64,000 nucleotides of DNA, from the IMG/VR virus record IMGVR_UViG_2775506876_000001, positions 1 through 64,000 of that record; one strand, written 5' to 3'. The stretch comes from a virus. Its lineage: Duplodnaviria > Caudoviricetes. The position numbers and the translations under genes are program-made. Shown in pieces: positions 10,817-64,000 of the stretch (positions are counted from its first letter, which is position 1; every line of letters starts with the position of its first letter). Under the pieces are notes generated by a model, which had not been told where the DNA came from, did not search any database, and worked only from the letters and a program-made list of their open reading frames with translations.

Positions 10817-11761
10817 ATAAGTTTAGCTTATACATATACTATTTTAAGCATTTATACTTACTTGTACTACTGTAATAGTACAGATATTCTCAATAACTCG
10901 AATATTCTCAATAAGACTACAAAATTTTTTGTAGTTTTTTGTAATAGTTTTTGTAGAAATTACAAACTACAAAAACCTTATGTAGCAAGGATTTTGTAAT
11001 AGTTTTTGTAGATTTTGTAGTTTTGAGCCGGATATAAATCTCTAGAGCTTTGTAGTATGTCTGTAATATAAAAACAGGTAGTTTTGTAGTACAAGAAAAT
11101 CTTATATATCAAGACTTATATGAATATCTAGTTTTCTATGGTCAGAGAAAAATAATTAAAAAATTATGTAGTCCAGGGTATGTAATCAGTAAAAAACCTA
11201 AATAGTTATAAATACTTAAACTAGTACAAATAATCTATTTAATTTGTATTACATATATAAAACATAAAGAAGTATAAGAAAAACTTATATTAATTTATCC
11301 TTTATATAACTAGTACAAATTTATAAGTAAAAATACTTATTTAGATTTTTTATGATTTACTCAGGTTTTTGTTAGTACAACTACCCTGGACTACATAATT
11401 TTTTGATTATTTTTCTCTAGCCAGATTAAATCATAGATTTCTATAAGCCTTTGATAGTACTAGTTTGTATAAATTTTACTAGTACACTTTGATAGTACAC
11501 CTGTACTAGTACACCTGTAGAGATTTATATCCGGCTCAAAACTACAAAATCTACAAAAACTATTACAAAAACCTTGCTACATAAGGTTTTTGTAGTTTGT
11601 AATTTCTACAAAAACTATTACAAAAAACTACAAAATTTTTTGTAGTCTTATTGAGAATATCGAGCTTATTGAGAATATCTGTACTATTACAGTAGTACTT
11701 AATAAGTAAAAATACTCTAGTACAGTTATTTGCAATAAGATGTTTTATTGACAATAGGTAG
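10817..11761. repeat. Nested inverted-repeat element, copy 1 (~945 bp)
   Basis: 181-bp near-perfect outer arms at 10864-11044 and 11518-11698; inner arms at ~11144-11180 and 11382-11418; near-identical to copies 2 and 3. Confidence 0.95.
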
Positions 11762-11867
11762 GTATTTGTCGAGTGTTATTCACATCTGAATTGTAAAGAA
11801 ATGTAAACAAACAGTCATTTGGTTTAAACTAGGTTTATACTAAAAGAATAGTGAACAGCACAGACAC

Positions 11868-12212
11868 ATGAACAACTCAAAAGTTGCCATAAGCTTACGG
11901 TTATCACCGAGATTGCACACAATTGTTAAAAAGATTTCTGAAATTGACCAAAAAAGTATGAATGATGTTGTTTCTGATGCGATTGAAGCTTACGCTAATA
12001 GCCGTGTAATACGTGAAAATATCCAGACAAAAGACCCGGATTATTCTATATCTATTGACAAAGATTTGTCTGGAAATTCAACGTTAACTCTGTATTCACT
12101 TTATGCGGGTTCAAACCACATAGTCTTTAATAATGTTAGTGAAGATAATTTACAGGCTGCAATTGAGCAACTAAACTCTTTAGTTGATTTTTCTCATGAG
12201 CGTTTACTTTAA
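11868..12212 (+). CDS. Ribbon-helix-helix (Arc/HicB-like) DNA-binding protein
   Basis: ISLRLSPRLH..IS..DQKSMNDVVSDAIEAY pattern at the N-terminus. Confidence 0.7.
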   Translation: MNNSKVAISLRLSPRLHTIVKKISEIDQKSMNDVVSDAIEAYANSRVIRENIQTKDPDYSISIDKDLSGNSTLTLYSLYAGSNHIVFNNVSEDNLQAAIEQLNSLVDFSHERLL

Positions 12213-12244
12213 CTCAATGATTGCAAACATAGCAGGTAATTACA

Positions 12245-12517
12245 ATGATTCAACACCCTTTCTCTTGGCATGTAATTAAAACTCATCGTTCAAATGAGCA
12301 AGCATACCAATGTTTTTCCAGACTCAGAGGTCACGATAGTTCTTTATTTTTCGGAACCGATGAAGCAACAAAAGAGAACGCAATAGCTCACAGAGATTAT
12401 CTAAATAGAATAGAAAAATGGGATAAGTATTACACAACAGAAACGGTACAAAGAGTTTCGTTAGAGTATGATGTTTATCCCGAAGAATTTTTAAATGGTC
12501 TAGAAATTGTTGGATAA
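12245..12517 (+). CDS. Hypothetical protein
   Basis: 90 aa ORF with AGGT-type RBS, co-oriented with its neighbours. Confidence 0.6.
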   Translation: MIQHPFSWHVIKTHRSNEQAYQCFSRLRGHDSSLFFGTDEATKENAIAHRDYLNRIEKWDKYYTTETVQRVSLEYDVYPEEFLNGLEIVG

Positions 12518-12907
12518 TTTCTAAAACTTGAACAAATGTTATCCCTGGTCAAAAACAACGAGTAAAAAAAATGAACGTTTGTAAAGCTATTCAATGTCCT
12601 TATTTTAACGCTAAAACTAATAATTACGGATGTCAAAGATATCAAGTTTCAAACCATTGTCATTTGATTAAAGACTTTCAATTTTTAGCACCAACACAGT
12701 ATGTTTTAGTTTGTCAAGAAACGACAGAATTAGATAAAATTAAATCGGTCAACAAAGAATATTTTTTAACTGATGAAAAATATCAGGATGATAAAAAGTT
12801 TTTAGAAACTCATTCTGGTTGGTTTAACGCTCATAGCTTTAAAGTTGGAAATCTGATTTAACCAATTTCTAAAACTTGAATAACTGTTATCCCTGGTCAA
12901 AAACAAC
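12516..12907. repeat. 44-bp direct repeats (12516-12559, 12864-12907)
   Basis: aatttctaaaacttgaaYaaMtgttatccctggtcaaaaacaac, 2 mismatches. Confidence 0.9.
12571..12861 (+). CDS. Hypothetical Cys-rich protein
   Basis: 96 aa, C-x4-C..C..HCH; flanked by 44-bp direct repeats. Confidence 0.6.
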   Translation: MNVCKAIQCPYFNAKTNNYGCQRYQVSNHCHLIKDFQFLAPTQYVLVCQETTELDKIKSVNKEYFLTDEKYQDDKKFLETHSGWFNAHSFKVGNLI

Positions 12908-12959
12908 CAGGGATTTTTTATTGTTACAGATCAAGCTGCAAAACTAGTCTATATTACCC

Positions 12960-13028
12960 TTGACAAATTTAAACTTTTATGCTATAGCAAATAAATTCTA
13001 TATTTTTAAAATTGAAAAGTGACTTTTT
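12960..13028 (+). promoter_or_regulatory. Sigma70-type promoter followed by palindromic operator-like site
   Basis: TTGACA-17 bp-(TGc)TATAGC, then AAAAGTGACTTTTT at 13015-13028; near-identical inverted copy at 30064-30135. Confidence 0.7.
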
Positions 13029-13044
13029 GAATTGCCAGACAAAT

Positions 13045-13073
13045 AAAAAAACCCTAGATTTAAAGTCTAGGGT
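13045..13073. terminator. Intrinsic terminator downstream of the tail tube gene
   Basis: accctagatttaaagtctagggt hairpin with a flanking A-run (U-tail on the minus strand). Confidence 0.65.
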
Positions 13074-13127
13074 AATGTTGTCCATTACTTAGCTACCAAA
13101 TTTTAAAACCAGTTAGCGATTGCTAGA

Positions 13128-13955
13128 TTACGGCAACAAACTAGATTGACCACGTAACACTTTGTAGTTGGTTTCGTTAGGGTCATAAGCTGTGAAAGTT
13201 ATGTTGTACGCTCTTTGGTTTTGAATAGAGAAAGATAGGTTTAATTTACCTTCAACACCTGCATAAGGGAAGATGTACCAGAGTGTTGGATCTGTTGAAG
13301 GATCACCACCGACATAAGGTCTAATTACTACAGTACGATATGGAAGTTCAAGAGATCCGGTTGTTAATCCAGAGTCATCACCCATTGTAATCAACTCTGG
13401 TAAACCACCAGCTAAACCAGCACTACCCTGGTAAGCAGCAGCGTTTGTGGCAACTCGCATCAAGTCAATTCGATCGTCTGCAATTGATACTTGAGCGTTA
13501 GCTGTCATACCAACTTTGGTTTTGTTGAATGGAGCCATAGAAGCTTGAGTTAGGTTATCCTGATACATTTCTTCTATGTTCACCGTTGCAGCTTCTAACT
13601 GGTCAGAAGCTTTAATGACAACGTTCAATGGTGTAAAGGTTAGTGTGACACTTGCACCAGTTGCAGTTGCATTAGCGCTCAAAGTGATGCTGGTACTAGA
13701 ACCTTTAGCAGCAACATAAGTACCTGCGGGAATACCAGTACCAGAAACCGCCATACCTACTTGAACGTTTTGAAAACCGTTGGCGGTACTTGTAGTTACT
13801 GCTGTACTTCCTGAAGTTGTAGAACAAGCAGCAACTGTAAAATCTGCTGTATTTTGATAAGTTGTTACCAGGGTTGTAGCTAACCCTTTAAGTTCAGTAA
13901 GTGTTAAGGCTGGTGTGATAATTGTAAATTCGGCTGGCCCACGAAGTTTAGCCAT
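13128..13955 (-). CDS. Major tail tube protein with an inserted beta-rich accessory domain
   Basis: 275 aa, downstream of the head-tail completion genes; tube-like C-terminus (LNLSFS..YNITFTAY). Confidence 0.7.
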   Translation of the reverse strand: MAKLRGPAEFTIITPALTLTELKGLATTLVTTYQNTADFTVAACSTTSGSTAVTTSTANGFQNVQVGMAVSGTGIPAGTYVAAKGSSTSITLSANATATGASVTLTFTPLNVVIKASDQLEAATVNIEEMYQDNLTQASMAPFNKTKVGMTANAQVSIADDRIDLMRVATNAAAYQGSAGLAGGLPELITMGDDSGLTTGSLELPYRTVVIRPYVGGDPSTDPTLWYIFPYAGVEGKLNLSFSIQNQRAYNITFTAYDPNETNYKVLRGQSSLLP

Positions 13956-13976
13956 TAATTTTAAATCCTCTTAATA

Positions 13977-14360
13977 TTAATAGAATCTGTAAACGAAATA
14001 ACCACAGTAACTCATAACTTCTTGTACATAACCTAAATAAAAATCCTTGATTTTGTTGAAATTTGTAGATGTTCTAAAAGTGTTCATCAATGTTTCAACA
14101 CGTTCAAGGATTCCATTGGGTTTTGTAAGTTGAAGTTCTTTTTGTGTGTAAATAGTTATTTGTATCTCTGGGTTTTTTATTTCATTTGAAATATATCTAC
14201 CAGATGCATTATCACGAATAATACTCACAACTATTTTAGGTAGATTAAAGTTGCTTAAATTCCCTGATGGATGTTCAGGTAATATCTCTGCAATACCGTT
14301 TAAGTTTGCAGTCAAATAATCAAAAATTTCTTTTCTTATTTGGAAACCTGAAGTCATCAA
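13977..14360 (-). CDS. Putative tail terminator/completion protein
   Basis: 127 aa, lies between the gp10-like and tail tube genes. Confidence 0.5.
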   Translation of the reverse strand: MMTSGFQIRKEIFDYLTANLNGIAEILPEHPSGNLSNFNLPKIVVSIIRDNASGRYISNEIKNPEIQITIYTQKELQLTKPNGILERVETLMNTFRTSTNFNKIKDFYLGYVQEVMSYCGYFVYRFY

Positions 14361-14441
14361 AGTTATCAGAGAATATAATACTTTCTAACCTAAAAGTATT
14401 ATATCATAAGTAAAATTAATGTAATAAGTAAAACTTATAAT

Positions 14442-14771
14442 TTATTGAAATTCTGATAAAATTTCTGAACGTATTTGTGGTACTGAAGATCTGACAAAAC
14501 CTGTTTTAGCTTCGACATAAACAGCGTAATTTACAGCCCGTTTAATGTTCTGTTCGCGTTTGATACCGTAAAGAGTTTTACCACCTAAACGGATTTTACA
14601 GCAGACATTGTTACCCTGGATAACAGGTTTTTCAGCTTCAATACTTTCAAAAAGTCGCTGAGTGTCTACAGGTGTAACATTCCTGATAATTTCAACAGAA
14701 CGACCAGAACCTCTGTGGATTTTTTCAGCAACTTGTTGTTTAATTTTTTCAATCTGACTTTGAATGTTCAT
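14442..14771 (-). CDS. HK97 gp10-like tail completion protein
   Basis: TPVDTQRLFESI and VNYAVYVE motifs. Confidence 0.75.
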   Translation of the reverse strand: MNIQSQIEKIKQQVAEKIHRGSGRSVEIIRNVTPVDTQRLFESIEAEKPVIQGNNVCCKIRLGGKTLYGIKREQNIKRAVNYAVYVEAKTGFVRSSVPQIRSEILSEFQ

Positions 14772-15124
14772 GACCAGTCATTAGGACTATAAGATTTTTT
14801 AGGAATCATAGAACCTTTAAAAGTTTGCCCAAAGATTTTTTCTAATTCTTTAAATCTGGTTCTATGAACGTTTTGGAAAATAAAATCACCTTGAACATTG
14901 TTATCGATAGTGATGATTGTTTTAGTACCGTTTTGAATTTCACTAGGTAACAGCCAATATTCAACCTGATTAGAATTGACTACATTACCAACAAAAAAGT
15001 TTCTTTCATTTTCAATACCTGTAGCTTCAAAAGTTCTAGTATTTTGATCAAGTTTTATAGATACTTCTATAATCAATTGATTGATTTGAATTACTGCGTT
15101 AGTTTCGTAAAATGTTCTAGGCAT
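14768..15124 (-). CDS. Putative head-closure protein
   Basis: 118 aa beta-rich, ATGA overlap with the gp10-like gene; call rests on synteny only. Confidence 0.4.
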   Translation of the reverse strand: MPRTFYETNAVIQINQLIIEVSIKLDQNTRTFEATGIENERNFFVGNVVNSNQVEYWLLPSEIQNGTKTIITIDNNVQGDFIFQNVHRTRFKELEKIFGQTFKGSMIPKKSYSPNDWS

Positions 15125-15148
15125 AAATAATAAATTAATAAAATATTT

Positions 15149-16576
15149 TTAAGTACCCATCAAATTTTTAACACCCTTGTTAACTTGAGTAAATGCAAGT
15201 GATAGAGCATCACCAGTATCACTGATTAACGGAACACCTGGAACACCTTCAAATTGATTAATAACTTTTAGAAAATCATCTGACCAGGGTTCATTTACTA
15301 TGTAAAATTTACCTTTTTCAGCAGCTTCTGCACAGGGTAACGCTCTAATAGCCTTAGAACCTTCAGGTTTTACACCACGTACCCGATAAGCTTTTAACAA
15401 TGGTTTAAAACTGTTCTCTAGCCATAGAATGCTTTGTGAACCACCTTCAAGTTCTATAAATACTGGTACTGATTTAGGTTGTTTTTCAACAGTTGAAATT
15501 ACGTAATTCTGAGTTGAATGTGCATCTTTCTTGCATGGATACCAATTTAAAATGTAAAAATTTTCTTTATATTTCCCGATTAATACACCAACCGTGTAGC
15601 AACTAGTATCTTTGTCAGTTGCGGCAAAGTCCCAAGCTATTACTTGATAATCAAAATATTTTGGTAAATCGTTCTGAGAAATTTTCTTAAACCATGAAGC
15701 TTTGAAAATACTGTTGGCATTTGAAACTGCTGGGATAGTGTCTAATTCTTCTGATGCTCCATCACCATACTGCTCATAAATTTCTGATACCCATTTATTT
15801 TCATTTTCTTTAGTCCAGGGTTGTCCACTTGTTAAACAAATACGTTGATACAAACCCTGGTTAACAGCATCTTTAAAAGTGTTTTTCTGCTTATAATATT
15901 TTTCTTCACCTTTGTTTACAGCTTCGCAAAGTTCATTAAAAGGATTATCAATACCATTATGAGTTGATACTATAAAAACCTTACAACCCCAAATGAGCAT
16001 TGATTTTACAGCTTTCAAAAACTCTAAAGGATTTGTGAGGAACGAAAATTCATCGCATAGAACATTTCCTTGTAAACCTCTGATAGAACTAGGTTTACTA
16101 GATAATGCCATCACTTTTTTATTAGACTTAAAATTAATTCTTAAACTTAAAATAGAGTCTTTTTCTGACTCGTATAAATCTTCTTTGATTTCACTAGCAG
16201 CTAATTGAAAATGTTTAACCCAATAGCTACAACTTTCTAAAAACTCTTTAGCCATTGACAAGCTAGTGCCAATATAATAAAAATTTTTACCGTTTTGTTT
16301 AGCAGCCGTTAAAACAGCATAAGCAGCTAACGCCCAGGTTGCCCCGATTCTTCTAGATTTTTCCCAAATTAATATTTTATTTTCTGGATTTTCGGCAGCT
16401 TTGTAAAATTGTTGTTGATAGGGAAAAAGTATCGGTGGTAATTCACGGAATAATTTATTATCTTCGGGTAAACAATCGGAAACTTCCCTAGATATTTTAT
16501 CGATGTTATCCAGGGAAGTTTTATTGATATTCAGAACCGTTTTAGGTTTGATTTTTGTTTCTAAGATAATTTTCAT
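15149..16576 (-). CDS. Terminase large subunit
   Basis: LFPYQQ Q-motif, EKSRRIGATW Walker A, VLCDE Walker B, VST motif III, AWDFA RNase H-like nuclease domain. Confidence 0.92.
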   Translation of the reverse strand: MKIILETKIKPKTVLNINKTSLDNIDKISREVSDCLPEDNKLFRELPPILFPYQQQFYKAAENPENKILIWEKSRRIGATWALAAYAVLTAAKQNGKNFYYIGTSLSMAKEFLESCSYWVKHFQLAASEIKEDLYESEKDSILSLRINFKSNKKVMALSSKPSSIRGLQGNVLCDEFSFLTNPLEFLKAVKSMLIWGCKVFIVSTHNGIDNPFNELCEAVNKGEEKYYKQKNTFKDAVNQGLYQRICLTSGQPWTKENENKWVSEIYEQYGDGASEELDTIPAVSNANSIFKASWFKKISQNDLPKYFDYQVIAWDFAATDKDTSCYTVGVLIGKYKENFYILNWYPCKKDAHSTQNYVISTVEKQPKSVPVFIELEGGSQSILWLENSFKPLLKAYRVRGVKPEGSKAIRALPCAEAAEKGKFYIVNEPWSDDFLKVINQFEGVPGVPLISDTGDALSLAFTQVNKGVKNLMGT

Positions 16577-16579
16577 TAT

Positions 16580-29859: not shown

Positions 29860-30048
29860 ATGACTAGAAACAAAATTGTAATTTTTTCAGGAATACTGGT
29901 TTTATTAATAGTTGTCAACGCAATAACCTACATTAACCAAAGTTGCTCAAAAATAATTAAAGAAGCTGTAGACCAGGGTGATATACAAGTTTTACAGGAT
30001 ATCAACTCTGGTAGAAAATATTGCAGACCCGCAGGAAAATTATTTTAA
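29860..30048 (+). CDS. Small membrane-anchored/secreted protein
   Basis: N-terminal hydrophobic helix, two Cys. Confidence 0.5.
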   Translation: MTRNKIVIFSGILVLLIVVNAITYINQSCSKIIKEAVDQGDIQVLQDINSGRKYCRPAGKLF

Positions 30049-30198
30049 TTTGTCAGACATTATAAAAAGTGACTTTTTAATTTTAAAAATATAGAATTTA
30101 TTGTCTATAGCATAAAAGTTTAAATTTGTCAAGGGTATTTATAATAATTTTCAGATTTTGTAGCCAGATTGAAAACTACAAAAAATATTTGGTTGTTG

Positions 30199-30518
30199 GT
30201 TTCAATCCCTGATAGGGATTATTAGGTATCGCTAGATTCATTACTGAGGAAGATTACAAGGGCATAGGTTTCAATCCCTGATAGGGATTATTAGGTATTG
30301 CTAGAATTACGTAATGAGGCTGTTGAGTTTTTACGTAAGTTTCAATCCCTGATAGGGATTATTAGGTATTGCTAGTTTAGGCTTTTTAGTGCTGATATCC
30401 CTATTAACGTTTCAATCCCTGATAGGGATTATTAGGTATTGCTAGATTTTTAGCTGGGATATCTTACGCTCCAATTGGTTAGTTTCAATCCCTGATAGGG
30501 ATTATTAGGTATTGCTAG
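30199..30518 (-). CRISPR. CRISPR mini-array: 5 x 37-bp repeats, 4 spacers, no cas genes in the window
   Basis: Plus-strand repeat GTTTCAATCCCTGATAGGGATTATTAGGTATTGCTAG starts at 30199, 30268, 30339, 30409 and 30482; spacers are 32, 34, 33 and 36 bp; the only variant repeat is the leader-distal one. Confidence 0.97.
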
Positions 30519-30612
30519 GGCTACCTTTTGAAAGTCTTTGTCTATAAGGTTTTCACGGTTCGGTTGCGTCAATCTACTTAAAAATATCATTACAGCCATT
30601 AAACTGTCAAGG
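30519..30612 (-). promoter_or_regulatory. CRISPR leader
   Basis: Minus strand reads TTGACA...gattgacgcaaccgaaccgtgaaaaccttatagacaaagactttcaaaaggtagcc and then the repeat; resembles Nostocales array leaders as I recall them. Confidence 0.7.
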
Positions 30613-30671: not shown

Positions 30672-31784
30672 TAGGGCATTCTAGACCAGGGTAAAAGCAT
30701 GTATGAATCTAGGGTACTTAGATAATCTAGAACCTTTTAACTATCTATTGTCATTAAAACATCTTATTGCAAATAACTGTACTAGAGTATTTATGCTTAT
30801 TAAGTACTACTGTAATAGTACAGATATTCTCAATAAGCTCAATATTCTCAATAAGACCACAAAATTTTTTGTAGTTTTTTGTAATGGTTTTTGTAGAAAT
30901 TACAAACTACAAAAACCTTATGTAGCAAGGATTTTGTAATAGTTTTTGTAGATTTTGTAGTTTTGAGCCGGATATAAATCTCTACAGGTGTACTAGTACA
31001 GGTGTACTATCAAAGTGTACTAGTAAAATTTATACAAACTAGTACTATCAAAGGCTTATAGAAATCTATGATTTAATCTGGCTAGAGAAAAATAATCATA
31101 AATTTTTGTAGTCCAGGGTAGTTGTACTAACAAAAACCTGAGTAAATCATAAAAAATCTAAATAAGTATTTTTACTTATAAATTTGTACTAGTTATATAA
31201 AGGATAAATTAATATAAGTTTTTCTTATACTTCTTTATGTTTTATATATGTAATACAAATTAAATAGATTATTTGTACTAGTTTAAGTATTTATAACTAT
31301 TTAGGTTTTTGTTAGTACAACTACCCTGGGCTACATAATTTTTTGATTATTTTTCTCTGACCATAGAAAACTAGATATTCATATAAGTCTTGATATATAA
31401 GATTTTCTTGTACTACAAAACTACCTGTTTTTATATTACAGACATACTACAAAGCTCTAGAGATTTATATCCGGCTCAAAACTACAAAATCTACAAAAAC
31501 TATTACAAAATCCTTGCTACATAAGGTTTTTGTAGTTTGTAATTTCTACAAAAACTATTACAAAAAACTACAAAATTTTTTGTAGTCTTATTGAGAATAT
31601 TGAGCTTATTGAGAATATCTGTACTATTACAGTAGTACAAGTAAGTATAAATGCTTAAAATAGTATATGTATAAGCTAAACTTATCAATGAAAACTACAA
31701 AAAGTCTGAAAGCCTTGTAACAACTAGAATCTTTATTCAGCTTGATAAACTAATCGTGCTGCCACCCTGGTCTAGAATGCCCTA
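30672..31784. repeat. Nested inverted-repeat element, copy 2 (inverted relative to copies 1 and 3)
   Basis: Core ~30741-31703 is the reverse complement of copy 1; additional perfect 21-bp outer IR at 30672-30692 and 31764-31784. Confidence 0.95.
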
Positions 31785-31932
31785 TAACTTACCCGATCAT
31801 CGAACAAACCCTTTTGTACTTCCAATGAATCAAGGCTTTTTGTAATCGATTCTGGAAACTACAAAAATTTTTGTAGTCCATTTTGCAACTCTGCGATAAA
31901 CTACAAAATTCAAAAATTGTTTTAAAATACCC

Positions 31933-32002
31933 TTGACAAATTTAAACTTTTGTGCTATAGAGAATAATTTATAAAATATTCAAAATTAAAAAGTCACTTT
32001 TT
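31933..32002 (+). promoter_or_regulatory. Sigma70-type promoter and palindromic site upstream of the nucleotide-metabolism genes
   Basis: TTGACA-17 bp-(TGc)TATAGA; AAAAAGTCACTTTTT at 31988-32002. Confidence 0.7.
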
Positions 32003-32941: not shown

Positions 32942-33926
32942 TAACTTTGGTATAGGTTTTTTTAATCCTAGAATGATAAAAAGTTCTAGGATTTTTTATA
33001 TAATAGATATGTTCTTAGCTACTTGATTTTATGAATAACATTGTTGAATTATTAGGCTTTTATGGTGGTGATAAAAGAGTTTGTTTATCAGCTTGGCAAA
33101 GTACTACAGAAGAATTAGGAATTGATTTACCCGATGATATTTCTGATAGGGTTGATGTGATTTTTGAATATCTATGTACCCAGAAAAAGAAAACACCTTT
33201 TGAATTATTAAATTTTTTAGCTGAAAATCATCACGAAACACCTTTTGAAAAAGCTATTTTAGATTTTCAATTAACAGGTGATATTGCATCACACATACAT
33301 GTAATCAAACATAGAATAAGTAGTGTAAATGCAGAAAGTCAAAGATATAAAGAGTTTATTTATGATCGTTTTTATATTCCTGATGATTGGCAAGGAATTC
33401 AAGCTACTGGTGATGTAACTTGGTTTACTAATTTTGAAGAAGAATGTGTTTTTAGCAATAAAAACGAATATTGGCAAGACATTTTAGAAAATTATAGTCA
33501 ATTAGGGTTTAATTTATATCATCAAGCTATTGAAGATTTAACACCAGTTTTAGGTAAAAAAACGTGCTAAAGAATCAGCTAGATATTTTCTCGGTTATAA
33601 TACTCAAATAAACTTTGACTGGCAGATGAATTTTAGAAGCTTTGTAAATATTCAACAATTAAGAAATAGTGATCATTCTCAAAAAGAAATTCATTACATT
33701 GCCAACACCATGCTTTATTTAGTTGAGAATATCCCTGGACAACCGTTTAAATATTGTTTAAAAGCTTTTGGATTAAAGTCTGATCCTAATTGGTTGTTAA
33801 ATCATCAAAAATTACTTGAAGATTTAAAATTGCTAAATAATCTATAACTTTGGTATAGGTTTTTTAATCCTAGAATTATAAAAAGTTCTAGGATTTTTTA
33901 TATAATAGATATGTTCTTAGTTACTT
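32941..33926. repeat. ~84-bp direct repeats flanking the first thyX (32941-33024, 33844-33926)
   Basis: Near-identical units, each holding a terminator-like hairpin, a TATAAT box and the 5' UTR. Confidence 0.9.
33031..33847 (+). pseudogene. thyX: FAD-dependent thymidylate synthase split by a +1 frameshift in an A7 run
   Basis: HETPFE and KHRISSVNAESQRY motifs; removing one A at 33556-33562 gives GKKRAKESARYFL..MNFRS and joins ORF 33626..33847. Confidence 0.85.
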
Positions 33927-33935
33927 AATGGTTTT

Positions 33936-34745
33936 ATGTTTCAACCTAAAGTCAAAATTATTAAAGATTCGGTTAACGCTGCAACTGGTTCTAGAATTAC
34001 AACTTTTGTTTTAACTTATCATCGTTTTATACATTCTGAGTTCATGACTTATAGAATGTTTTCTAGAAATGCTTCAAGTTCTAGAGCAATTCCTGTAGAG
34101 AAAATGATTCAAAAAGTTATTGATCAACAGGTTGAGCCACTTTATTGGGGTAAGAATCAACCAGGGATGCAAGCGAGTCAAGAATTATCATCAGAAGAAA
34201 TAGAGCAAGCCAGATTACAATGGAATGCCGCAAAAGCAACAGTAATTTCTTATGCTCGACAAATGATTGAAAAAGGTGTACATAAACAAATAGTCAATAG
34301 AATTTTAGAACCTTTTTCAACCATTACAGTAATTTGCACATCCACAGATTATCAAAACTTTTTTAATCAACGTTGTCATCCAGATGCACAACCAGAAATA
34401 CAAGCTTTAGCATATTTAATGAAAGCTGAGTATGATAAATCAAAACCTGATATCTTATACCCTGGTGAATGGCATTTACCATTTTATGATTTAGAGAATG
34501 ATAAAGGTATTTTTGGTGATGATATTTTAAAAGTGTGTGTTGGTAGATGTGCAAGAGTTAGTTATTTAAATCATGATGGTAAGCGTAATTTAAGCAAAGA
34601 TATTGAATTACATGATAAATTACTTGTTGCTAACCCAAAACATCTTAGTCCTTTTGAACATGTAGCGATCGCTCAAACTGGTAATAATGCTAATTTTTTG
34701 GATTTTAAAAGTTATAGATATATTTTAGAAAATTCTGGTTTATAA
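33936..34745 (+). CDS. thyX: Second FAD-dependent thymidylate synthase (phage-type Thy1)
   Basis: RFIHSEFMTYRMFSRNASSSRAIP, HKQIVNRILEPF, AQPEI, CARVSY, HLSPFEHVA. Confidence 0.88.
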   Translation: MFQPKVKIIKDSVNAATGSRITTFVLTYHRFIHSEFMTYRMFSRNASSSRAIPVEKMIQKVIDQQVEPLYWGKNQPGMQASQELSSEEIEQARLQWNAAKATVISYARQMIEKGVHKQIVNRILEPFSTITVICTSTDYQNFFNQRCHPDAQPEIQALAYLMKAEYDKSKPDILYPGEWHLPFYDLENDKGIFGDDILKVCVGRCARVSYLNHDGKRNLSKDIELHDKLLVANPKHLSPFEHVAIAQTGNNANFLDFKSYRYILENSGL

Positions 34746-47313: not shown

Positions 47314-48033
47314 TCAAGAGTATTTAAGCTTATATTTTTTAAAATTATCAGATTGACAAAACAAACAGTTACGATTTTTAATCAATCTGATAGAATAACC
47401 AGAATCTTGGAATTCATGTCCATTGCTACAAATAGAACCAAAAGCGTATAATTCCGGTTTTCTACGAAGTTCAATTAAAAAATCTGTAGCCTCTTGACTT
47501 AATTCAGCATTTTTGTATTCTCGCTGAATTCCTAGTTTTTCCCTGGTCACTTGTTGGTATATTATTTTTTGTTGCTTTTTGATTTTTTCTTCATTTTCTA
47601 AACGGTAATTTATTGCGCAAAAAATACATCTTTTTGATATTTTATATCTGATAGAATAACCAGAATTTTCAAATTCATGATTATTCGGACAGATAGTACC
47701 AAATCTAAAATCATCGGAATTTTTACCACTAGCTTTTAAAAAGTTGATAGCCGATTTAGTCAAAGGTGTAAATTTACCAAAAACCGATTCTTTTTTCTGT
47801 TTCACATGATCTTTACATTTTCTAGTTTTATTACATTCATAACAATTATTACCGTTTTTATATCTGATGGAGTAACCAGAATCTCGGAATTCATGATTGT
47901 TCTTACAAATTTCACCAAATCTGTATAATTCTGGATTGCAGCCAGCAAATATTAAATGATCTATAGCTTCTTGGCTTAATTCTGGGTAATTCATATCGAT
48001 TAAATAAAAGTGACTTTTCAAGTATACAAACAA
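47314..48033 (-). CDS. Protein with three tandem Cys/His (Zn-finger-like) repeats
   Basis: 3 x FG.IC.N.HEF..SGYSIR.....C..C. Confidence 0.7.
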   Translation of the reverse strand: MFVYLKSHFYLIDMNYPELSQEAIDHLIFAGCNPELYRFGEICKNNHEFRDSGYSIRYKNGNNCYECNKTRKCKDHVKQKKESVFGKFTPLTKSAINFLKASGKNSDDFRFGTICPNNHEFENSGYSIRYKISKRCIFCAINYRLENEEKIKKQQKIIYQQVTREKLGIQREYKNAELSQEATDFLIELRRKPELYAFGSICSNGHEFQDSGYSIRLIKNRNCLFCQSDNFKKYKLKYS

Positions 48034-53831: not shown

Positions 53832-53850
53832 GATTTTGAATCCTTTAGAG

Positions 53851-53994
53851 TTAGTGGTTGTCTAGATAGAACCGGATTGCGTCAAGAATGACCTGAGTTA
53901 AGGTTTTTTCTTTGTTTTTACAGAATTCCTCAAGCTCTTGTCTGAGTTTTGGTGGAATTCGTAAACCAAACTGGGGTATTAAGTTCTTAGCCAT
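53851..53994 (-). CDS. Arc-family ribbon-helix-helix repressor, not in the ORF track
   Basis: Manual translation MAKNLIPQFGLRIPPKLRQELEEFCKNKEKTLTQVILDAIRFYLDNH; compare Arc PQFNLRWP. Confidence 0.75.
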   Translation of the reverse strand: MAKNLIPQFGLRIPPKLRQELEEFCKNKEKTLTQVILDAIRFYLDNH

Positions 53995-54711
53995 ATTTAT
54001 AATATAACTGCTAGTTAGATACTTGTCATGAGTATTTATTACTAATTTAGATAAACGATCGCTATAATATTGTACGTACTCAGGTAAGTTACAACAGACA
54101 CGATTATTTCAGACCAGGGAACGGTTATTACCCTGGACATAAATTACAGATATAGTCAGATTACTGAAAGCCTTACACAAAGCCGATCGCTTCTATAATC
54201 GCAGGGTAGCGATTGAGACTACACACTGGCTGGAACGCTTACACGGCTTATGTTACGGGTACATAATGATGATGCATATGTAAGGAAGCGATTTTTCAAG
54301 ATACTAGGGAAATATGGGCACTTTTCGAGGGTTAAAAAAATTAGCGATTTTCAAAGTTCAGTAAGCGATTATCCTTACACAGCAAGGCTTTAAACCACTT
54401 ATTTTTTAAAAGTGTTCAGTGACCATAAAGAGTGTTAGTTCAGATTAAATTATCTTGTAACACTGAACTATTTTTAGAAAGCTTTATATAGCAACAATTA
54501 CAGCCAGCGATTCAACATAATCGCTGAATCGCTCTTAACAATTCTTAACTAAAAAATAAGTAAAAGTACTCTTGTAATCAGTTAAAAAATGTGTTAGTGT
54601 TCAGACTGAATTCAACGATTTTCAGAACTGAATCAATTAGCGATTAAAAAAGATGCTACGATAGTGAAAACGTTAAAAAGTTCTTTGAACTCTACTGAAC
54701 TATGCTAAAAG

Positions 54712-58068: not shown

Positions 58069-59370
58069 TTAAGCAGCTTCTTGTTGTTCAGACAATTCAG
58101 AGGGTTTTTGTTTGCTTTGAATTTTTAAAACCTGTTCCTGAATTTTCTTAACTTTGTCAGCAATTTTAACAATTTGTTCAGGCATCAAATCAGGGTATTC
58201 TTGTACAGCCAGATTACTTAAGAACAAAGCAAAATCAGCTAAGTTATCTTTGGCTTGTCCTAACGCTTCAAAGGTAATAGCTTGTCTTTGAATGGTTTCA
58301 GAATCTTGTTCAGAATCTTGTTCAGAATCTTGTTCAGAATCTTGTTCAGAATCATCATCGTTATCATTAATCAAATTCTCAACACTAGCGGTTAAGAATT
58401 CTTTGGCATGTTCTAACGCTTCAACAGTTAAAGCATTATTAGAACCATCTTGTAAACCAACAAAATCTAAAGCTTCATTAATGACTTTTTCAAAATCAGC
58501 TTCAGTTTCTTTGGTAATTTTTTCAACTTCATCGACTAAAGCGAAAGGTAGAACACCAGATTCAACAAGTTCTAGGACTTGTTCACCTTTTTCTAAAATT
58601 TCCTCAACACGATCAACGTCTTTAATTGTGACTTTGTTTTTACCCCTTTCATTAGCTGATTTAACAGCCAAGTCTAAATAGTTTTTGGATTCAATACCAG
58701 CTTTGCTAGATTTAGCTAACACTGTATCAGCTATTGCTAAATCTATGGTTCCATCATTTAAAGCGGACTTTATAAATTCATCCTCTGTTGTGGATACTCT
58801 TAAAATCTGCTGTATCCAAGTTTCTGATTTACCCTGAATTGCTGCTATAAAAGTTGTAACCTTTTTACGTAATTTTTTAACAGCTTTTTCATCCGGTTCC
58901 GTACCATTTTCTTTGATATATTCATCTAAAACTTGTTGATATTTAATATCAAAGATTTCCTGAATGCCTTTAGAATATTCAAACGGTTTTAGTTGATTAT
59001 TGGTTGTTCCTAAAGAAAGCATCCAACTTTTGCGCTTGATAGGATCTTCAGCATCCTCAACGGGCATGATAATATACGGAAAATCTAAAGATCCTTTGTA
59101 TTCGGGATCTGTTGCAAGATTTTGTAGAGCTGCTAATCTGGAATTACCATCCCAGACAACCCTTTTACCATCAACATTATATACAGATGGTAAAACAACA
59201 CCAGGAATTTTAACACCACCATCAGCCTTGATAGCGGCTGTTAACTCTGGTCTATCGATTATTTCACGATAATTTTCGTCAGTTACAACAAATTCGGAAT
59301 AATTTGCAGTATAATAGGTCTTTTTAGTTGCTGCCATATCAGTTACGTTATCCTCTAAAATGTCCGACAT
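58069..59370 (-). CDS. ParB/Srx-domain protein with HTH
   Basis: LTAAIKADGG..P..V..VWDGNSRLAAL (ParB N-domain); IAAIQGKSETWIQQIL HTH; acidic C-terminus. Confidence 0.78.
   Translation of the reverse strand: MSDILEDNVTDMAATKKTYYTANYSEFVVTDENYREIIDRPELTAAIKADGGVKIPGVVLPSVYNVDGKRVVWDGNSRLAALQNLATDPEYKGSLDFPYIIMPVEDAEDPIKRKSWMLSLGTTNNQLKPFEYSKGIQEIFDIKYQQVLDEYIKENGTEPDEKAVKKLRKKVTTFIAAIQGKSETWIQQILRVSTTEDEFIKSALNDGTIDLAIADTVLAKSSKAGIESKNYLDLAVKSANERGKNKVTIKDVDRVEEILEKGEQVLELVESGVLPFALVDEVEKITKETEADFEKVINEALDFVGLQDGSNNALTVEALEHAKEFLTASVENLINDNDDDSEQDSEQDSEQDSEQDSETIQRQAITFEALGQAKDNLADFALFLSNLAVQEYPDLMPEQIVKIADKVKKIQEQVLKIQSKQKPSELSEQQEAA
58298..58353. repeat. In-frame 12-bp tandem repeat encoding (DSEQ)4
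   Basis: tcagaatcttgt repeated about 4.7 times. Confidence 0.9.
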
Positions 59371-59603
59371 ATTTTTTATAGCACCTATCGGCTTAAACTG
59401 TCTAGTGTTTACTAAATAATTTTACCACGATTCAAAAAGTCACTTTTTAAACTTTTATCTATAATAATAAGTCAAAAAGCATAAAAAATCTAGTTTATAT
59501 AAGTAATTTTTATATAATCTGTAAAATAAATATTATAAAAAGAAAAATAATTAAGTAATTTTAGCAATTGAAATTGCTTGTTTAAACTGTAATCATTTAA
59601 ATA

Positions 59604-59813
59604 GTGTTGATACTTCGCTTGAACTCTAGGATTATGTTAAAGAAACCAAAGAAAATTTCCGACAAATTAATGGGGTTTTTTGTTACTCCAGAGGAAAAAA
59701 TATTAATCATCCAAGCTAAACCTGATGATGTAAGTATGTCAGAATTTTTAAAATCAATAGTGATGCCAATTGTTACGAAAATGGTGATTTTAAAAAGAGC
59801 AAAATCACCTTAA
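59604..59813 (+). CDS. Small RHH/MobC-like DNA-binding protein
   Basis: GFFVTPEEK..I...VSMSEFL. Confidence 0.5.
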   Translation: MLILRLNSRIMLKKPKKISDKLMGFFVTPEEKILIIQAKPDDVSMSEFLKSIVMPIVTKMVILKRAKSP

Positions 59814-59861
59814 AGTTTTACAAAAGGTTTAAAGCCTTTTGTAAAACGCTTTAACAATTTG

Positions 59862-62552
59862 TCAAAGTTTTAACAATCCATTAACCTGATCAAACTCTGC
59901 TAAACCATGTTTAGCAACGTCTAGAAAAAGCTCAAGTATTTCTGGTTTTCTCAAATATTTCTTGTCTTTATTCCCATATTCTCTCAATACCTGAGCTTTT
60001 CTACAAAATGCATCTTTATAAAAATCTGATGCTTCGATAAATTGTTTTTGTTTATTTTCAAGAATTTTTTTACATTTTTTGATAAATTCTTGAAAAAGAA
60101 AGAGTTTTGATTGATCTATGTTTTCTAACTTATCCGTTAGGCTATGTTTGTAAACTAAACTAGCTTTTTCAATCAACCACATCCCAATTGCACAAGCTCT
60201 TAACATTGTTTCGTCACTCATGTGTTGTAAATCTTTATCAACACCTTCAGCAATTCTTAAGCAATGTAATGTTAATGCAATTCTGGCAACTTGTTCTGGT
60301 ATACGGTTAAGCCATTGCCCAAAAGCTTCATTAGTGTCAATGACATTTCTAGATTTCTCTAAAGTCTGATTTCTGAATGCTGCCCAGATAGCGTGGCTTG
60401 TCTTGGTGTTTTTGACCAGGGTATTAACTGGTTCACCCTTAACAGGATCTACAACGTGTGAAGCGTTTTGTATCTTTTTGTAAAGATTCAGACAGATTTC
60501 AGGAAAATCGAAATTAGTCTGAATATCTTCTAGAAACTTGTTGGGAACCACAATCGGTTCGGCAATCGGGACATAAAGGAATCTTCCACAGATACCTGAC
60601 CCAACATTATTATCGATATCAAAAGTATTATAGAAGCGTTTGGTTTGAATCGTACTGAGCATTGAGCATCTAAAAAAGTCGGCTTCTTCTTCAGATGTGC
60701 TGACACGATTTCTTAAGGTTGTGTCACCATTCCAAATACGGATGAACTGATCTAGCGCATTCCCTTTCTTGTTGTTGTTAATGGTATCAATGCCACTTAA
60801 AAAGTCTGTTACTTCATCAGGACTAATTAGCAAGCCATAATTTTTATGTTCCCCAGACATTGTGCTAATAGCTTGTAAGCTCGAATCAGTCACGATGTAT
60901 GGGTGGGCTTTTGTAGGTGTTGGACACATAACTTCCCGAATCTTTACCATATCCATATCATCGGGAATGCTAGATTGATATGTTTGTTGTAAGTACTGGG
61001 CTTCTTTTTCATCTTTCTTTAAGGTTTTCCAATACTCTGAAAAAGCGTTATAAGCTTTGTTATCTTGAATATATGTGTTATTGGCTTCGACAGCCAAACG
61101 CTTAAAAGACTTTTTGAAAGGATCAACGGCTAAAGATTTACCATCCGTAGAACCACCTAGAAAAATAGTAAATATATTACTCGAACAAATACCAGTACTA
61201 TTAAAATTAAAATTTGTGAACTTGCTTATTACACTACTAGAACAAGTCAGTAGTGACATAATTAAGTATTCTTCAGGTATATTATTTTCTACACCATATC
61301 TTTTTAAATCTTTTAAAATTGATGTACCGGATAATACATAGTCAGCACTTAATTTAGATGTCTGTGCTTTCTGTATATCAGACAATCCAGATTGGAAAGT
61401 GACTTTTTGATCCTCTGAATAATCTACCTCAGACAACATATTTTCAATTGTCTGGATCATTTCCTGATCTCTATACCCTGGTTCACGATCAAAAGTCTGT
61501 CTAAAAGCTAAACCAGCGATTATAGGTAGTTCGGCTGAAGTGAAATTTTTGACTTTTAAGCGGTTAACGTTTTCCTGTAACTCTTGGAATTTATCTAGAT
61601 TTTTCCTTTCTTGGTGTTTTTGTAAATTCTGATCAAGATTAAAAGCTGAATTCCATTCTTGAGCTAGTTCTTTAAGTTCTTGATCATCCAGGGTAGGCTC
61701 AGGCTTACTGTTAAAAGCACTATTCCATATTGTTTCTGATTCGCTTCTATCTATAGAAGGATTACAAGCTTGGCAATACTGCTCAAAAAGTTCATCAGCA
61801 GCACCCTGGTATTTAATACCTAGCTGATTTAATCTGTTTTCAGTACCAACTAAATTCACAGCTAATTTGTAGCCTGAGTTGTTTCTAGAACCTTGTTCAG
61901 CACCATTAATAATCAATTGTCTATCGGAACCAGTCAGAAAAAATTCGAGTATTGGAATATCTTGTCTAAAATCTGGTAAAGCTGATGATACTTGCTTTTC
62001 CGGTTTAGCTTCAGATTTACCGTTAGATTCTAGATAACTATATATAGGGTGATTTTTAGATATCGTTGCCACTGGTAAATGATTTGAATAATAAGGTTGA
62101 TTAGTTTTCGGATGGATGCCAGCAATAACTTGATAATGTTTACCCGTTCTAAATTCCAGTTGTTCTTGATCACCTGTAGCGATCGTGAAATGTTCAAAAG
62201 GTTTTTCGATTTTGTAAATTAAAGCTTCTCTTTGTCCAGGGTTAGAACTAATCGTTAGTGTCTCTGGTAGTTCAAAACCTAGCAAATCAAAGAATTCTAT
62301 AGCTGTAATACCATCCTTATCGATCGCTATGTATTCATTACCCAGAACTATAGAAAGCATAGTCATATCAGGGTAATCCGAAAGCTTATCTAGAGTTATA
62401 GTTCCGTTTTGCCAACCTTTAGCACCTTTACAAGGAATTTTCTTATCGTTTAAACCTTTCTTGCAAGGCACAAAAGCTGTAAAAACTAAGCTGGCTATTT
62501 GATTTAGGTCAATTACTGTAGCAGTAAACTTTGTAGCGGTTGTTGTTTTCAT
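59862..62552 (-). CDS. Primase-polymerase / PriCT / DUF3987-type helicase replication protein
   Basis: K.P...GWQ, IDKDG, LPETLT, LEFRTG.HYQVIAG.HP; GSRNN; GGSTDGKS, PDE, GRFLY. Confidence 0.85.
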   Translation of the reverse strand: MKTTTATKFTATVIDLNQIASLVFTAFVPCKKGLNDKKIPCKGAKGWQNGTITLDKLSDYPDMTMLSIVLGNEYIAIDKDGITAIEFFDLLGFELPETLTISSNPGQREALIYKIEKPFEHFTIATGDQEQLEFRTGKHYQVIAGIHPKTNQPYYSNHLPVATISKNHPIYSYLESNGKSEAKPEKQVSSALPDFRQDIPILEFFLTGSDRQLIINGAEQGSRNNSGYKLAVNLVGTENRLNQLGIKYQGAADELFEQYCQACNPSIDRSESETIWNSAFNSKPEPTLDDQELKELAQEWNSAFNLDQNLQKHQERKNLDKFQELQENVNRLKVKNFTSAELPIIAGLAFRQTFDREPGYRDQEMIQTIENMLSEVDYSEDQKVTFQSGLSDIQKAQTSKLSADYVLSGTSILKDLKRYGVENNIPEEYLIMSLLTCSSSVISKFTNFNFNSTGICSSNIFTIFLGGSTDGKSLAVDPFKKSFKRLAVEANNTYIQDNKAYNAFSEYWKTLKKDEKEAQYLQQTYQSSIPDDMDMVKIREVMCPTPTKAHPYIVTDSSLQAISTMSGEHKNYGLLISPDEVTDFLSGIDTINNNKKGNALDQFIRIWNGDTTLRNRVSTSEEEADFFRCSMLSTIQTKRFYNTFDIDNNVGSGICGRFLYVPIAEPIVVPNKFLEDIQTNFDFPEICLNLYKKIQNASHVVDPVKGEPVNTLVKNTKTSHAIWAAFRNQTLEKSRNVIDTNEAFGQWLNRIPEQVARIALTLHCLRIAEGVDKDLQHMSDETMLRACAIGMWLIEKASLVYKHSLTDKLENIDQSKLFLFQEFIKKCKKILENKQKQFIEASDFYKDAFCRKAQVLREYGNKDKKYLRKPEILELFLDVAKHGLAEFDQVNGLLKL

Positions 62553-62916
62553 ATATTTATTACTTCAGACCTGAATCTATTATACTATGTTTGTAAAAAT
62601 CATATAATACTGATGTAAAAGCTTTACTTATACCACAATCTCTATAATATCATTAAAATTTATAATGCTTCTGAACAGTATTATCTGTGTTATAGTTAAA
62701 TCAACATAAAATATTACTTCAAACCTAATTTTCAGCCAGCCCTAAAAGTTGGCTGATTTTTTTATCTAAAATTTGTCGGACAAATCAAAAAGTGACTTTT
62801 TGATTTTTAAATTTAAAGTTTGTAAATACCTATATGAAAATTGTGTAAATACCTATAGACGTTAGTAACAGCACTAAGTATTATATATAGTTACACAAAT
62901 CTCACAGGTTAGATAT

Positions 62917-63150
62917 ATGGCTGTCAAGTCTTTAGTCAGACCAACCAATCACCAGCTATCACAATCACAAATAGAGTTTTACCAAAATCTGAGACTCCAG
63001 AAAGCTTACAAAGAAGCCGAAATGTATAAGAGAAACTGCTTGAGAATAAAATCAGAACATTGTATATTTTGCAACTCTCAGAAGTTAGTTTTAACACCTC
63101 TATCAAAGGAAAGGACTTTTAAATGTTCAAGTTGCAACAGAAGTTTCTAG
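62917..63150 (+). CDS. Zinc-ribbon protein
   Basis: CIFCNS..FKCSSCNRSF. Confidence 0.65.
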   Translation: MAVKSLVRPTNHQLSQSQIEFYQNLRLQKAYKEAEMYKRNCLRIKSEHCIFCNSQKLVLTPLSKERTFKCSSCNRSF

Positions 63151-63353
63151 TATATTTTGTATATTTTGAATAAAATCAGATATATTACATCATTAATCAT
63201 CAGCTTGGGCATCTATAAGTATCAACACTAATAACCCTGTCAGAATTCTGGCAGGTTTTTTAGTAAATTTTGTTCTATAACACATTCTTGTAAAATTGTC
63301 AATTAAATATTGAATAACAGTGTGTTTGACCAGGGTAAACGCTGATTATAGTA

Positions 63354-64000
63354 TTTTTGTAGTTTTCATTGATTTTCATTGATAAGTTTAGCTTATACAC
63401 ATGTTATTTTAAGCATTTATACTTACTTGTACTACTGTAATAGTACAGATATTCTCAATAAGCTCAATATTCTCAATAAGACTACAAAAAATTTTGTAGT
63501 TTTTTGTAATAGTTTTTGTAGAAATTACAAACTACAAAAACCTTATGTAGCAAGGATTTTGTAATAGTTTTTGTAGATTTTGTAGTTTTGAGCCGGATAT
63601 AAATCTCTAGAGCTTTGTAGTATGTCTGTAATATAAAAACAGGTAGTTTTGTAGTACAAGAAAATCTTATATATCAAGGCTTATATGAATATCTAGTTTT
63701 CTATGGTCAGAGAAAAATAATCAAAAAATTATGTAGCCCAGGGTAGTTGTACTAACAAAAACCTAAATAGTTATAAATACTTAAACTAGTACAAATAATC
63801 TATTTAATTTGTATTACATATATAAAACATAAAGAAGTATAAGAAAAACTTATATTAATTTATCCTTTATATAACTAGTACAAATTTATAAGTAAAAATA
63901 CTTATTTAGATTTTTTATGATTTACTCAGGTTTTTGTTAGTACAACTACCCTGGACTACAAAAATTTATGATTATTTTTCTCTAGCCAGATTAAATCATA
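63354..64000. repeat. Nested inverted-repeat element, copy 3 (truncated by the window end; same orientation as copy 1)
   Basis: Near-identical to 10817-11434; both inner arms present. Confidence 0.95.

Follow-up and report, generated by a model that had tools for sequence, protein, structure and literature searches.

The window analysed here, the whole stretch of 64,000 nucleotides (nt) at positions 1 to 64,000 of the viral record IMGVR_UViG_2775506876_000001 (Duplodnaviria; Caudoviricetes), carries three dispersed non-coding copies of an element of about 950 bp built from nested inverted repeats. By analogy with repeats in Nostoc and Anabaena phages, we regard the elements with moderate confidence as phage-specific recombining long repeats of the A-1(L)/N-1/Elbi kind, in a version with three strongly palindromic copies that lies in an integrated prophage. 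They are a real and unusual feature, for which the collections and literature searched contain no description in this prophage. Their architecture is not categorically new: it varies on the genomic isomerism, bounded by repeats, that has lately been reported for related cyanophages.

Three copies of a nested palindrome in an integrated prophage

The genome that holds the window comprises 9.96 Mb with a guanine-plus-cytosine (GC) content of 41.4% and the cyanobacterial HIP1 octamer at 0.98 per kb. The window sits in a 31%-GC island whose ends carry an exact 28-bp direct attachment (att) repeat at window positions -1151 and 76688 (G000:C1 ~626020-703885), and this island is a prophage some 77.9 kb long. 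Of the 94 open reading frames (ORFs) called in the prophage, 58 were scanned in Pfam or PHROGs, and the only recombinase among these was a tyrosine integrase at 75355-76548, just outside the window; no transposase or recombinase was matched inside the window, as the earlier note on this DNA, made from the sequence alone, had observed. That note was silent on this integrase and the prophage context, and likewise on recombination or genome isomerism and on the LexA box described below. No invertase was found in the scanned set either, and the unscanned ORFs are too short to encode one, the giant protein excepted.

Repeat finding and whole-genome BLAST located the copies at 10817-11764, 30738-31694 (inverted) and 63373-64329, confirming the three dispersed non-coding palindromes of about 1 kb in the earlier description; the third runs past the window end to 64329 (G000:C1:638406-639353). 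BLAST with copy 1 against the 9.96-Mb assembly returned exactly three copies and none outside the prophage. In a position-by-position count over 948 nt, copies 2 and 3 differed at 18 positions, copies 1 and 2 at 31 and copies 1 and 3 at 35, giving an identity of 96-98% in agreement with the three-way alignment (97% by BLAST). Copies 1/2 and 2/3 form inverted pairs and copies 1 and 3 are direct, and each copy also matches the others on the opposite strand at 79-80% because the element is a near-palindrome. Three-way alignment with flanks revealed no target-site duplication at the element edges; the boundaries are ragged and differ between copies, with copies 2 and 3 having about 20 and 75 extra homologous bases in common at their edges. 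An inverted pair of TAGACCAGGGT lies 60-90 bp outside copies 2 and 3, and copy 1 has the left one only. The ORFs within the arms start with TTG and would encode low-complexity peptides.

The copies and their parts are as follows.

10817..11764, plus strand: element copy 1, complete, 948 nt (repeat finding, BLAST, alignment)
10864..11047, unstranded: copy 1 left outer arm, 184 nt, with TTTTGTAG/TTTTGTAA iterons, two ATATTCTCAATAA repeats and local sub-palindromes
11111..11204, unstranded: copy 1 left inner arm, CCAGGGTA at 11173
11205..11357, unstranded: copy 1 AT-rich core, two CTAGTACAAAT repeats
11358..11451, unstranded: copy 1 right inner arm, TACCCTGG at 11382
11452..11514, plus strand: copy 1 asymmetric right spacer, TAGTAC repeat cluster
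11515..11698, unstranded: copy 1 right outer arm, 95% complementary to the left arm
30738..31694, minus strand: element copy 2, complete, reversed (repeat finding, BLAST, alignment)
30804-30987 and 31455-31638: copy 2 outer arms
31051-31144 and 31298-31391: copy 2 inner arms
63373..64000, plus strand: element copy 3, truncated by the window, continuing to 64329
63429-63612: copy 3 left outer arm
63676-63769 and 63923-63995: copy 3 inner arms
10745..10752, plus strand: outermost CCAGGGTA, left of copy 1
30686 (plus), 31765 (minus, as CCAGGGTG), 63330 (plus) and 64375 (minus, outside the window): CCAGGGTA-equivalents outside the other copies

The outer arms measured 184 nt, not the 181 bp given earlier, and are 95-97% complementary. 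Each inner arm contains one CCAGGGTA, in line with the motif previously reported for these arms, and spans 70-94 nt at 81-85% complementarity rather than the proposed 37-56 bp. The centre is indeed very AT-rich (14% GC at 11200-11349). Folded as single-stranded DNA, the element forms one hairpin of -271 kcal/mol, compared with -76.5 +/- 5.8 kcal/mol in shuffles (z -33.6). The six outer arms differ from one another at 0-12 of 184 positions without any left/right grouping, and the inner arms split into left and right sets, with 0-3 differences among right arms versus 14-27 across sides. These distances fit ongoing conversion among the outer arms.

That the assembler created three copies from one is scarcely credible, since the copies differ at 18-35 positions and have distinct unique flanks, and since contigs of two public Logan runs enter copy 1 from both sides. 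Both runs are of DNA, and no RNA run was listed as containing the region. They probably derive from the source sample, so the check is independent of the assembler and not of the sample. On the left, contigs extend from the unique flank 30 nt into copy 1; on the right, they run from a point 47 nt within the copy to 12984. In the two runs k-mer depth was 2.4-5.7 times as high in the repeat pieces as in the flanks, which fits three copies with six outer arms, contig depth being a coarse measure. Together with the genome-wide BLAST and the 100 family genomes considered below, this speaks against the two alternatives named in the earlier note, a single collapsed copy and a host element. A contig running from inside the prophage past the window start had the same mean depth as purely prophage contigs, so nothing points to induction.

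The copies resemble the inverted repeats of N1-group cyanophages

The earlier note recognised no such architecture in tailed phages, yet a precedent exists in the Nostoc/Anabaena myophages, in which inverted repeats bound an invertible segment of about 30 kb. N1, A1 and Elbi each have one inverted-repeat pair, of 724, 717 and 617 nt and 98.3, 98.5 and 99.7% identity, respectively. These repeats lie in non-coding gaps around the ~30-kb segment, and in each of the three phages one of the two copies precedes the primase gene. In our comparison of the N1 and Elbi genomes, the flanks were collinear and the segment between the repeats was inverted. An inversion of 29,932 bp flanked by 504-bp inverted repeats has been reported, together with repeats at the same places in A-1 and N-1 that lack mutual similarity (Patel 2021, PMC8297451). 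According to Shi 2026 (bioRxiv 10.64898/2026.02.14.705889), repeats of 400-700 nt occur in nine phages, and both isomers coexist in all stocks tested by polymerase chain reaction and read mapping. Repeat-bounded isomerism in Anabaena/Nostoc phages has only just been described, and the searchable text of Shi 2026 assigns the repeats no mechanism or function and does not contain 'origin of replication', 'LexA', 'promoter', 'palindrom' or 'prophage'. A figure legend in Chenard 2016 (PMC4916379) includes an 'ori' label.

In the prophage, as in this group, the repeats are long and non-coding, face opposite ways within a single cyanophage genome and occupy gaps between transcription units. One N1-group copy stands before the primase gene, and copy 3 here before a primase-helicase gene whose product is unrelated to the N1 primase. 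The repeats are near-identical within a genome and unlike between phages: those of A1 match those of Elbi at 73% over 313 nt, and those of N1 resemble neither. Short iterons and nested inverted repeats are a further likeness, the N1-group repeats carrying iterons that face both ways (CAAGAC for N1, GTAAC for A1 and Elbi) together with weak nested palindromes. The only two LexA-pattern sites of N1 lie inside its repeats, and N1 carries a CRISPR-DR5 array similar to that of the prophage. Over 97% of its length, the prophage PolB shares 43-46% identity with proteins from seven records of the N1/A1/YongM/Elbi/Dfl-JY23 group, and the dCTP deaminase is 57-61% identical to its N1-group counterparts; N1-group matches were obtained for 6 of the 94 prophage ORFs.

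The prophage differs from the N1 group in having three copies rather than two, in the size of the element (948-1060 nt versus 400-724 nt) and in that each copy is itself a strong palindrome with 184-nt arms. Moreover, the phage here is integrated and temperate, and its virion genes and primase are unrelated to those of the group. Inversion has been shown there, whereas here it is a prediction from the sequence and orientation of the repeats.

Each copy lies where transcription units diverge

On the map of called ORFs every copy sits at a gene divergence. Copy 1 separates the leftward gene 9986-10492 and giant-protein block from a rightward operon with an Arc-like gene, copy 2 lies between a CRISPR-DR5 array reading away from it and the rightward dCTP-deaminase/ThyX block, and copy 3 separates the leftward primase-helicase gene from the rightward DHH/helicase/PolB/RusA operon. 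Copy 3 is 821 bp upstream of the primase-helicase gene, matching the ~0.8 kb estimated before. The exception is a short unverified ORF at 62917-63150, which reads toward copy 3. Because the copies sit at divergence points, no operon crosses an element, and inversion of a segment between copies would break nothing. Outward-facing promoter-like modules of about 90 nt flank copies 1 and 2; in each, a 17-nt spacer separates TTGACA from a TATAG-type hexamer, and the palindrome AAAAGTSACTTTT follows.

The features flanking the copies are as follows.

10574..10635, minus strand: promoter-like module M1, facing left, away from copy 1 and toward the 9986-10492 gene
11868..12212, plus strand: small Arc/CopG-like (ribbon-helix-helix) gene by copy 1 (PHROG E 2e-4, PDB E 0.9, no Pfam match)
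12940..13049, plus strand: module M2, facing right, with no gene to drive
30043..30159, minus strand: module M3, facing left, away from copy 2, with an iteron pair just upstream at 30156-30183
30199..30540, minus strand (Rfam): CRISPR-DR5 mini-array at a distance of about 200 bp from copy 2, with 5 repeats and 4 spacers
31857-31877: palindrome AACTACAAAAATTTTTGTAGT, upstream of M4
31899-31908: single iteron, upstream of M4
31906..31991, plus strand: module M4, facing right, toward the 32023 gene
59862..62552, minus strand: Prim-Pol/DUF3987 primase-helicase gene, its upstream region facing copy 3

Two apparent joints in the Logan contigs were rejected as rearrangements, their source being the short M-module and AAAAGTSACTTTT repeats. 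Module M2 lies between convergent terminator-like hairpins (12889-12914, plus strand; 13051-13073, minus strand) and is perhaps a remnant, perhaps an antisense promoter. Of the 32 copies of the palindrome AAAAGTSACTTTT in the whole genome, 28 are in the prophage (for example at 10545, 17392, 20369, 25663, 31989 and 40944). Nearly all of these are intergenic and, by inspection, precede a start codon by about 15-50 nt; possible roles are those of an operator, a stoperator-like site or a 5' untranslated region element.

Iteron arrays and a LexA box occupy every copy

The iterons and TAGTAC motifs that the earlier note placed in the arms were counted over the whole element. Each element contains 13-14 TTTTGTAG/CTACAAAA units and 12-13 TAGTACA/TGTACTA motifs, and some neighbouring iterons stand at roughly helical-turn spacing. 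Nineteen further TTTTGTAG/CTACAAAA units occur outside the elements, six of them intergenic beside copies 2 and 3, including palindromic pairs just upstream of M3 and M4. TAGTACA/TGTACTA is more confined, with 38 of the prophage total of 42 inside the three elements, and TAGTACA lies mainly in direct orientation in the core and right spacer.

The cyanobacterial LexA box follows the pattern RGTACNNNDGTWCB with the consensus AGTACWNWTGTACT (Mazon 2004, as quoted in PMC3091678). Each copy contains one match, the perfect palindrome AGTACACCTGTACT, which fits the 14-nt pattern fully and agrees with the consensus at 13 of 14 positions; the pattern occurs nowhere else in the prophage. Counted by strand, the window has four matches against 0.41 +/- 0.84 expected from shuffles, and the whole genome 106 (10.7 per Mb). 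Taking the proportion from the window shuffles, about 0.006 matches would be expected in a 948-nt stretch. The host lexA gene is preceded by AGTACTAATGTTCT.

11494..11507, unstranded: LexA-box-like palindrome AGTACACCTGTACT in copy 1 (pattern match)
30995..31008, unstranded: LexA-box-like palindrome in copy 2 (pattern match)
64059, outside the window: LexA box in copy 3 (pattern match)

Together, the LexA box and the dense TTTTGTAG and TAGTACA arrays suggest a putative SOS-gated origin or control hub, and an Arc-like protein encoded next to copy 1 is a tentative candidate for a DNA-binding partner of the elements.

In IMG/VR, the palindromic iteron pattern was found in 70 stretches, of which seven were iteron-dense (contigs L058, L088, L040, L064, L063, L060 and L061, with 1.9-6.2 TTTTGTAG/CTACAAAA per kb). 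In the two contigs read, L058 and L088, AACTACAAAAC forms tandem or palindromic clusters between small genes. No protein was common to the seven contigs and the prophage at E 1e-4, and AACTACAAAAC is possibly an operator motif widespread among phages. Single matches to the 20-nt iteron unit numbered 32 in metagenomes and 6 in IMG/VR, none extending beyond about 40 nt and none on a contig with proteins in common with the prophage, and a literature search for the iteron strings returned primer lists only.

Proposed recombining repeats with a possible hub function

If the elements are recombining repeats of the A-1(L)/N-1/Elbi kind, homologous recombination and gene conversion during phage DNA replication would keep the copies alike, and the phage RusA would resolve the junctions or extruded cruciforms. 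Recombination between inverted copies would flip segments of 19 kb (copies 1 and 2) and 32 kb (copies 2 and 3), giving up to four genome isomers with all operons intact. A phage protein and host LexA would bind at the iteron arrays and the LexA box, to both sides of a core that melts readily, making each copy an SOS-responsive bidirectional control region and probably an origin of replication. Recombination might be used by this hub function or be a by-product of it. The prophage offers a more elaborate and dissectable version of the N1-group system, with three copies, a near-consensus LexA box, a potentially inducible lysogen and clear sub-parts that are open to dissection, namely two iteron types, the AT-rich core and the CCAGGGTA-bearing inner arms.

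A number of observations weigh against this assignment. No inversion isomer of the prophage was observed, the data being one assembly and contigs unable to span a 950-bp repeat, and no close prophage relative with genomic context was found for comparing orientations or empty sites. The prophage and the N1 group are related only distantly: the capsid protein of the prophage has no N1-group match, the prophage falls outside the A-1/N-1 clade by ORF sharing (6 of 94), and its primase-helicase is unrelated to the N1 primase (BLASTP E 0.42). The element has no sequence likeness to the N1, A1 or Elbi repeats, and since structural genes, primases and element sequence are all unrelated, the kinship of the repeats is one of analogy. 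Because the N1-group repeats are weakly palindromic, the 184-nt arms are left unexplained by the assignment. Recombination between the direct copies 1 and 3 would also remove 52 kb, and the N1 group, with its two copies, is spared this cost. As to the LexA box, the three sites are copies of one sequence and count as a single event, Elbi has no match to the pattern, and the A1 sites lie outside the A1 repeats. Sigma-70-like promoter matches around copy 1 are not enriched (12 versus 16.1 +/- 4.0 in shuffles).

The searches for relatives drew on several collections. No full-length match to the element was found in INPHARED phages or PLSDB plasmids, and 10 of 100 other genomes of the family gave matches, all of 67 nt or less. 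Close relatives of the primase-helicase were absent from IMG/VR, from genome contigs and from metagenome contigs, and also from 400 other genomes of the order, where 14 matched at 25-40% identity over partial length; a protein collection yielded four homologues at 28-53% identity. The terminase has distant relatives only, and a 275-residue structural protein has homologues of up to 89% identity. PolB homologues occur in 81 of 388 other family genomes at 37-47% identity, mostly with about 606 residues, and are about as distant as that of N1. Many of them are on low-numbered or small contigs, which may be plasmids or other mobile elements.

Origins, control regions and other explanations

The elements might primarily be multiple replication origins, at which an initiator, which could be the primase-helicase or a small phage protein, binds the arm iterons, the core melts and bidirectional forks depart, recombination being incidental. 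This account overlaps with that of recombining repeats and does not exclude it, and taken as the primary function we consider it plausible yet less probable. The 13-14 TTTTGTAG and 12-13 TAGTACA motifs per copy, some near helical-turn spacing, and the AT-rich core between inverted arms are what such an origin would have. Copy 3 lies between the divergent primase-helicase and DHH/helicase/PolB/RusA operons, and the N1-group repeats are likewise found upstream of a primase gene. Cumulative GC skew reaches its minimum at 62-64 kb, but the skew turns coincide with changes of gene strand and are thus not independent evidence for an origin. Copies 1 and 2, moreover, stand beside tail, structural and CRISPR regions and not beside replication genes, and iteron pairs also occur at promoter-like modules outside the elements, where a transcription factor fits at least as well.

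Known systems offer partial parallels. In herpes simplex virus, oriS and oriL are palindromic, AT-centred and located between divergent genes, the three origin copies lie partly in inverted repeats, and recombination during replication inverts segments to give four isomers; that virus is eukaryotic, with no sequence or protein kinship, and an origin role is only proposed here. The homologous regions (hr) of baculoviruses are several dispersed imperfect palindromes that act as both enhancers and origins, though they consist of tandem ~30-bp palindromes in more copies per genome and are not akin to the element. SPP1 (oriL/oriR) and P4 (ori/crr) have multiple sites with common initiator-binding repeats, bound in P4 by the primase-helicase. 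Those sites are short (~100-300 bp) and not long palindromes, and they are not known to invert the DNA between them. The G segment of Mu (Gin) and the C segment of P1 (Cin) resemble the present case as phage DNA bounded by inverted repeats, and such invertase-driven segments are also discussed in Shi 2026. There, repeats of about 34 bp enclose segments of 3-4 kb next to the gene for a serine invertase, whereas here the repeats are about 950 nt and the 58 scanned ORFs include no invertase. The list of interpretations in the earlier note is partly supported: iteron arrays, an AT-rich core and placement at divergent operons, those of the replication genes among them, fit a protein-binding hub of the hr or oriS type. 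A more specific and rather speculative idea, which we think improbable though worth stating, is that of a temperate cyanophage with a herpesvirus-like plan, in which three LexA-gated palindromic origins would lie in recombining repeats, damage would license all of them and four isomers would result. If this were true, A-1/N-1-type inverted repeats would be origins and not mere recombination sites.

Transcription control is another possible primary role, and we regard it as somewhat unlikely. Six outward-facing operons would be under common, SOS-responsive control by host LexA and a phage regulator that binds the iterons, such as the Arc-like protein. This would account for the single LexA box in each copy and nowhere else in the prophage, for the iteron pairs immediately upstream of M3 and M4, and for genes that read away from each copy on both sides (except the short ORF 62917-63150), with the CRISPR array also oriented away from copy 2. 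The Arc-like gene adjoins copy 1, and the seven unrelated IMG/VR contigs have dense AACTACAAAAC clusters, lying between small genes in the two that were read. Yet no convincing promoter overlaps the LexA box, the best candidate by eye having 8 of 12 consensus positions and not being listed by the scan. The Arc-like call is weak by its PHROG and Pfam results, and about 950 bp with 184-nt arms far exceeds what an operator cluster needs.

A miniature inverted-repeat transposable element (MITE), a non-autonomous mobile element spread to three prophage sites, was among the earlier suggestions and is very doubtful. Like MITEs, the element is non-coding, has sub-terminal inverted arms and occurs in several dispersed copies, and copy 1 with three small genes interrupts an otherwise leftward block of structural genes. 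It has no copy elsewhere in the 9.96-Mb genome or in the 100 family genomes, lacks target-site duplications, differs in its boundaries between copies, has no parent element or transposase among the scanned ORFs and, at 948 nt, is long for a MITE. Hardly more tenable is a long hairpin RNA gene, also proposed earlier: either strand would fold into a hairpin of about 400 bp, but among the 5-9 outer-arm mismatches those compatible with G-U pairing number 1-3 on one strand versus 1-2 on the other, showing no strand bias, the elements have no Rfam match, and the LexA box together with the asymmetric direct iterons points to DNA as the form that is recognised.

Other features of the prophage

The prophage insertion splits a host gene for an AAA_23/SMC_N-type ATPase, leaving a 116-residue N-terminal piece by the integrase and a 632-residue ORF at the other end, and the host lexA gene lies about 2.3 kb past the integrase-side end. 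Genes for replication and integration include the integrase, KilA-N, PolB, an intein-bearing helicase, a weak DHH match and RusA; virion genes include terminase, portal, protease and major head protein; and the Prim-Pol/DUF3987 primase-helicase, a dCTP deaminase, two ThyX-like ORFs and the weak Arc-like gene complete the identified set. In one scanned batch, 19 of 20 ORFs had no match to a Pfam family. The labels of tail tube (13128-13955) and tail chaperone (9986-10492 and 9678-9923), which the earlier note gave to the genes separated by copy 1, were not confirmed, the only match being a weak one to a PHROG Ig-domain family (E 2.4e-5); the putative tail tube has no PDB sequence match, and its AlphaFold model has a pLDDT of 56. 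The ResIII/Helicase_C helicase at 67636-69600, outside the window, contains a HINT/intein domain at residues 146-270.

The four spacers of the CRISPR-DR5 mini-array have no other match in the genome and none in N1, A1 or Elbi. At C1:833396-836866 the host has 19 repeats with the first 25 nt of the mini-array repeat.

Shuffled versions of the window contain the hexamer CCAGGG 5.9 +/- 2.3 times, whereas the window itself has 111 copies; per kb, the frequency of the hexamer is 1.75 in the prophage and 0.26 in the host. It is found in every reading frame and on both strands, often as close inverted pairs. One such pair, at 54114 and 54131, lies in an 880-bp stretch (53832-54711) without an ORF of at least 55 residues. 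N1, A1 and Elbi each have an iterated GC-rich motif of their own (GATTCCGGGG or GACTCCGGGG) in roughly 40-50 copies, with strand-summed 8-mer counts of 75-104. For A-1 and N-1, 21-43 repeated 'promoter or stoperator' motifs are mentioned in Chenard 2016 (PMC4916379).

Two further regions contain repeats. The ThyX-like ORFs at 33031-33570 and 33936-34745 match positions 8-127 and 60-189 of the Thy1 profile, respectively; a 70-nt repeat, 96% identical, precedes each of them (32958-33027 and 33860-33929), and a 73-residue ORF lies between the two, so that the ThyX-like gene appears to be either split or partly duplicated. Within a 239-residue ORF at 47314-48033, three repeats of about 97 nt that are 62-72% identical (47364-47937) indicate that the predicted product is internally repeated.

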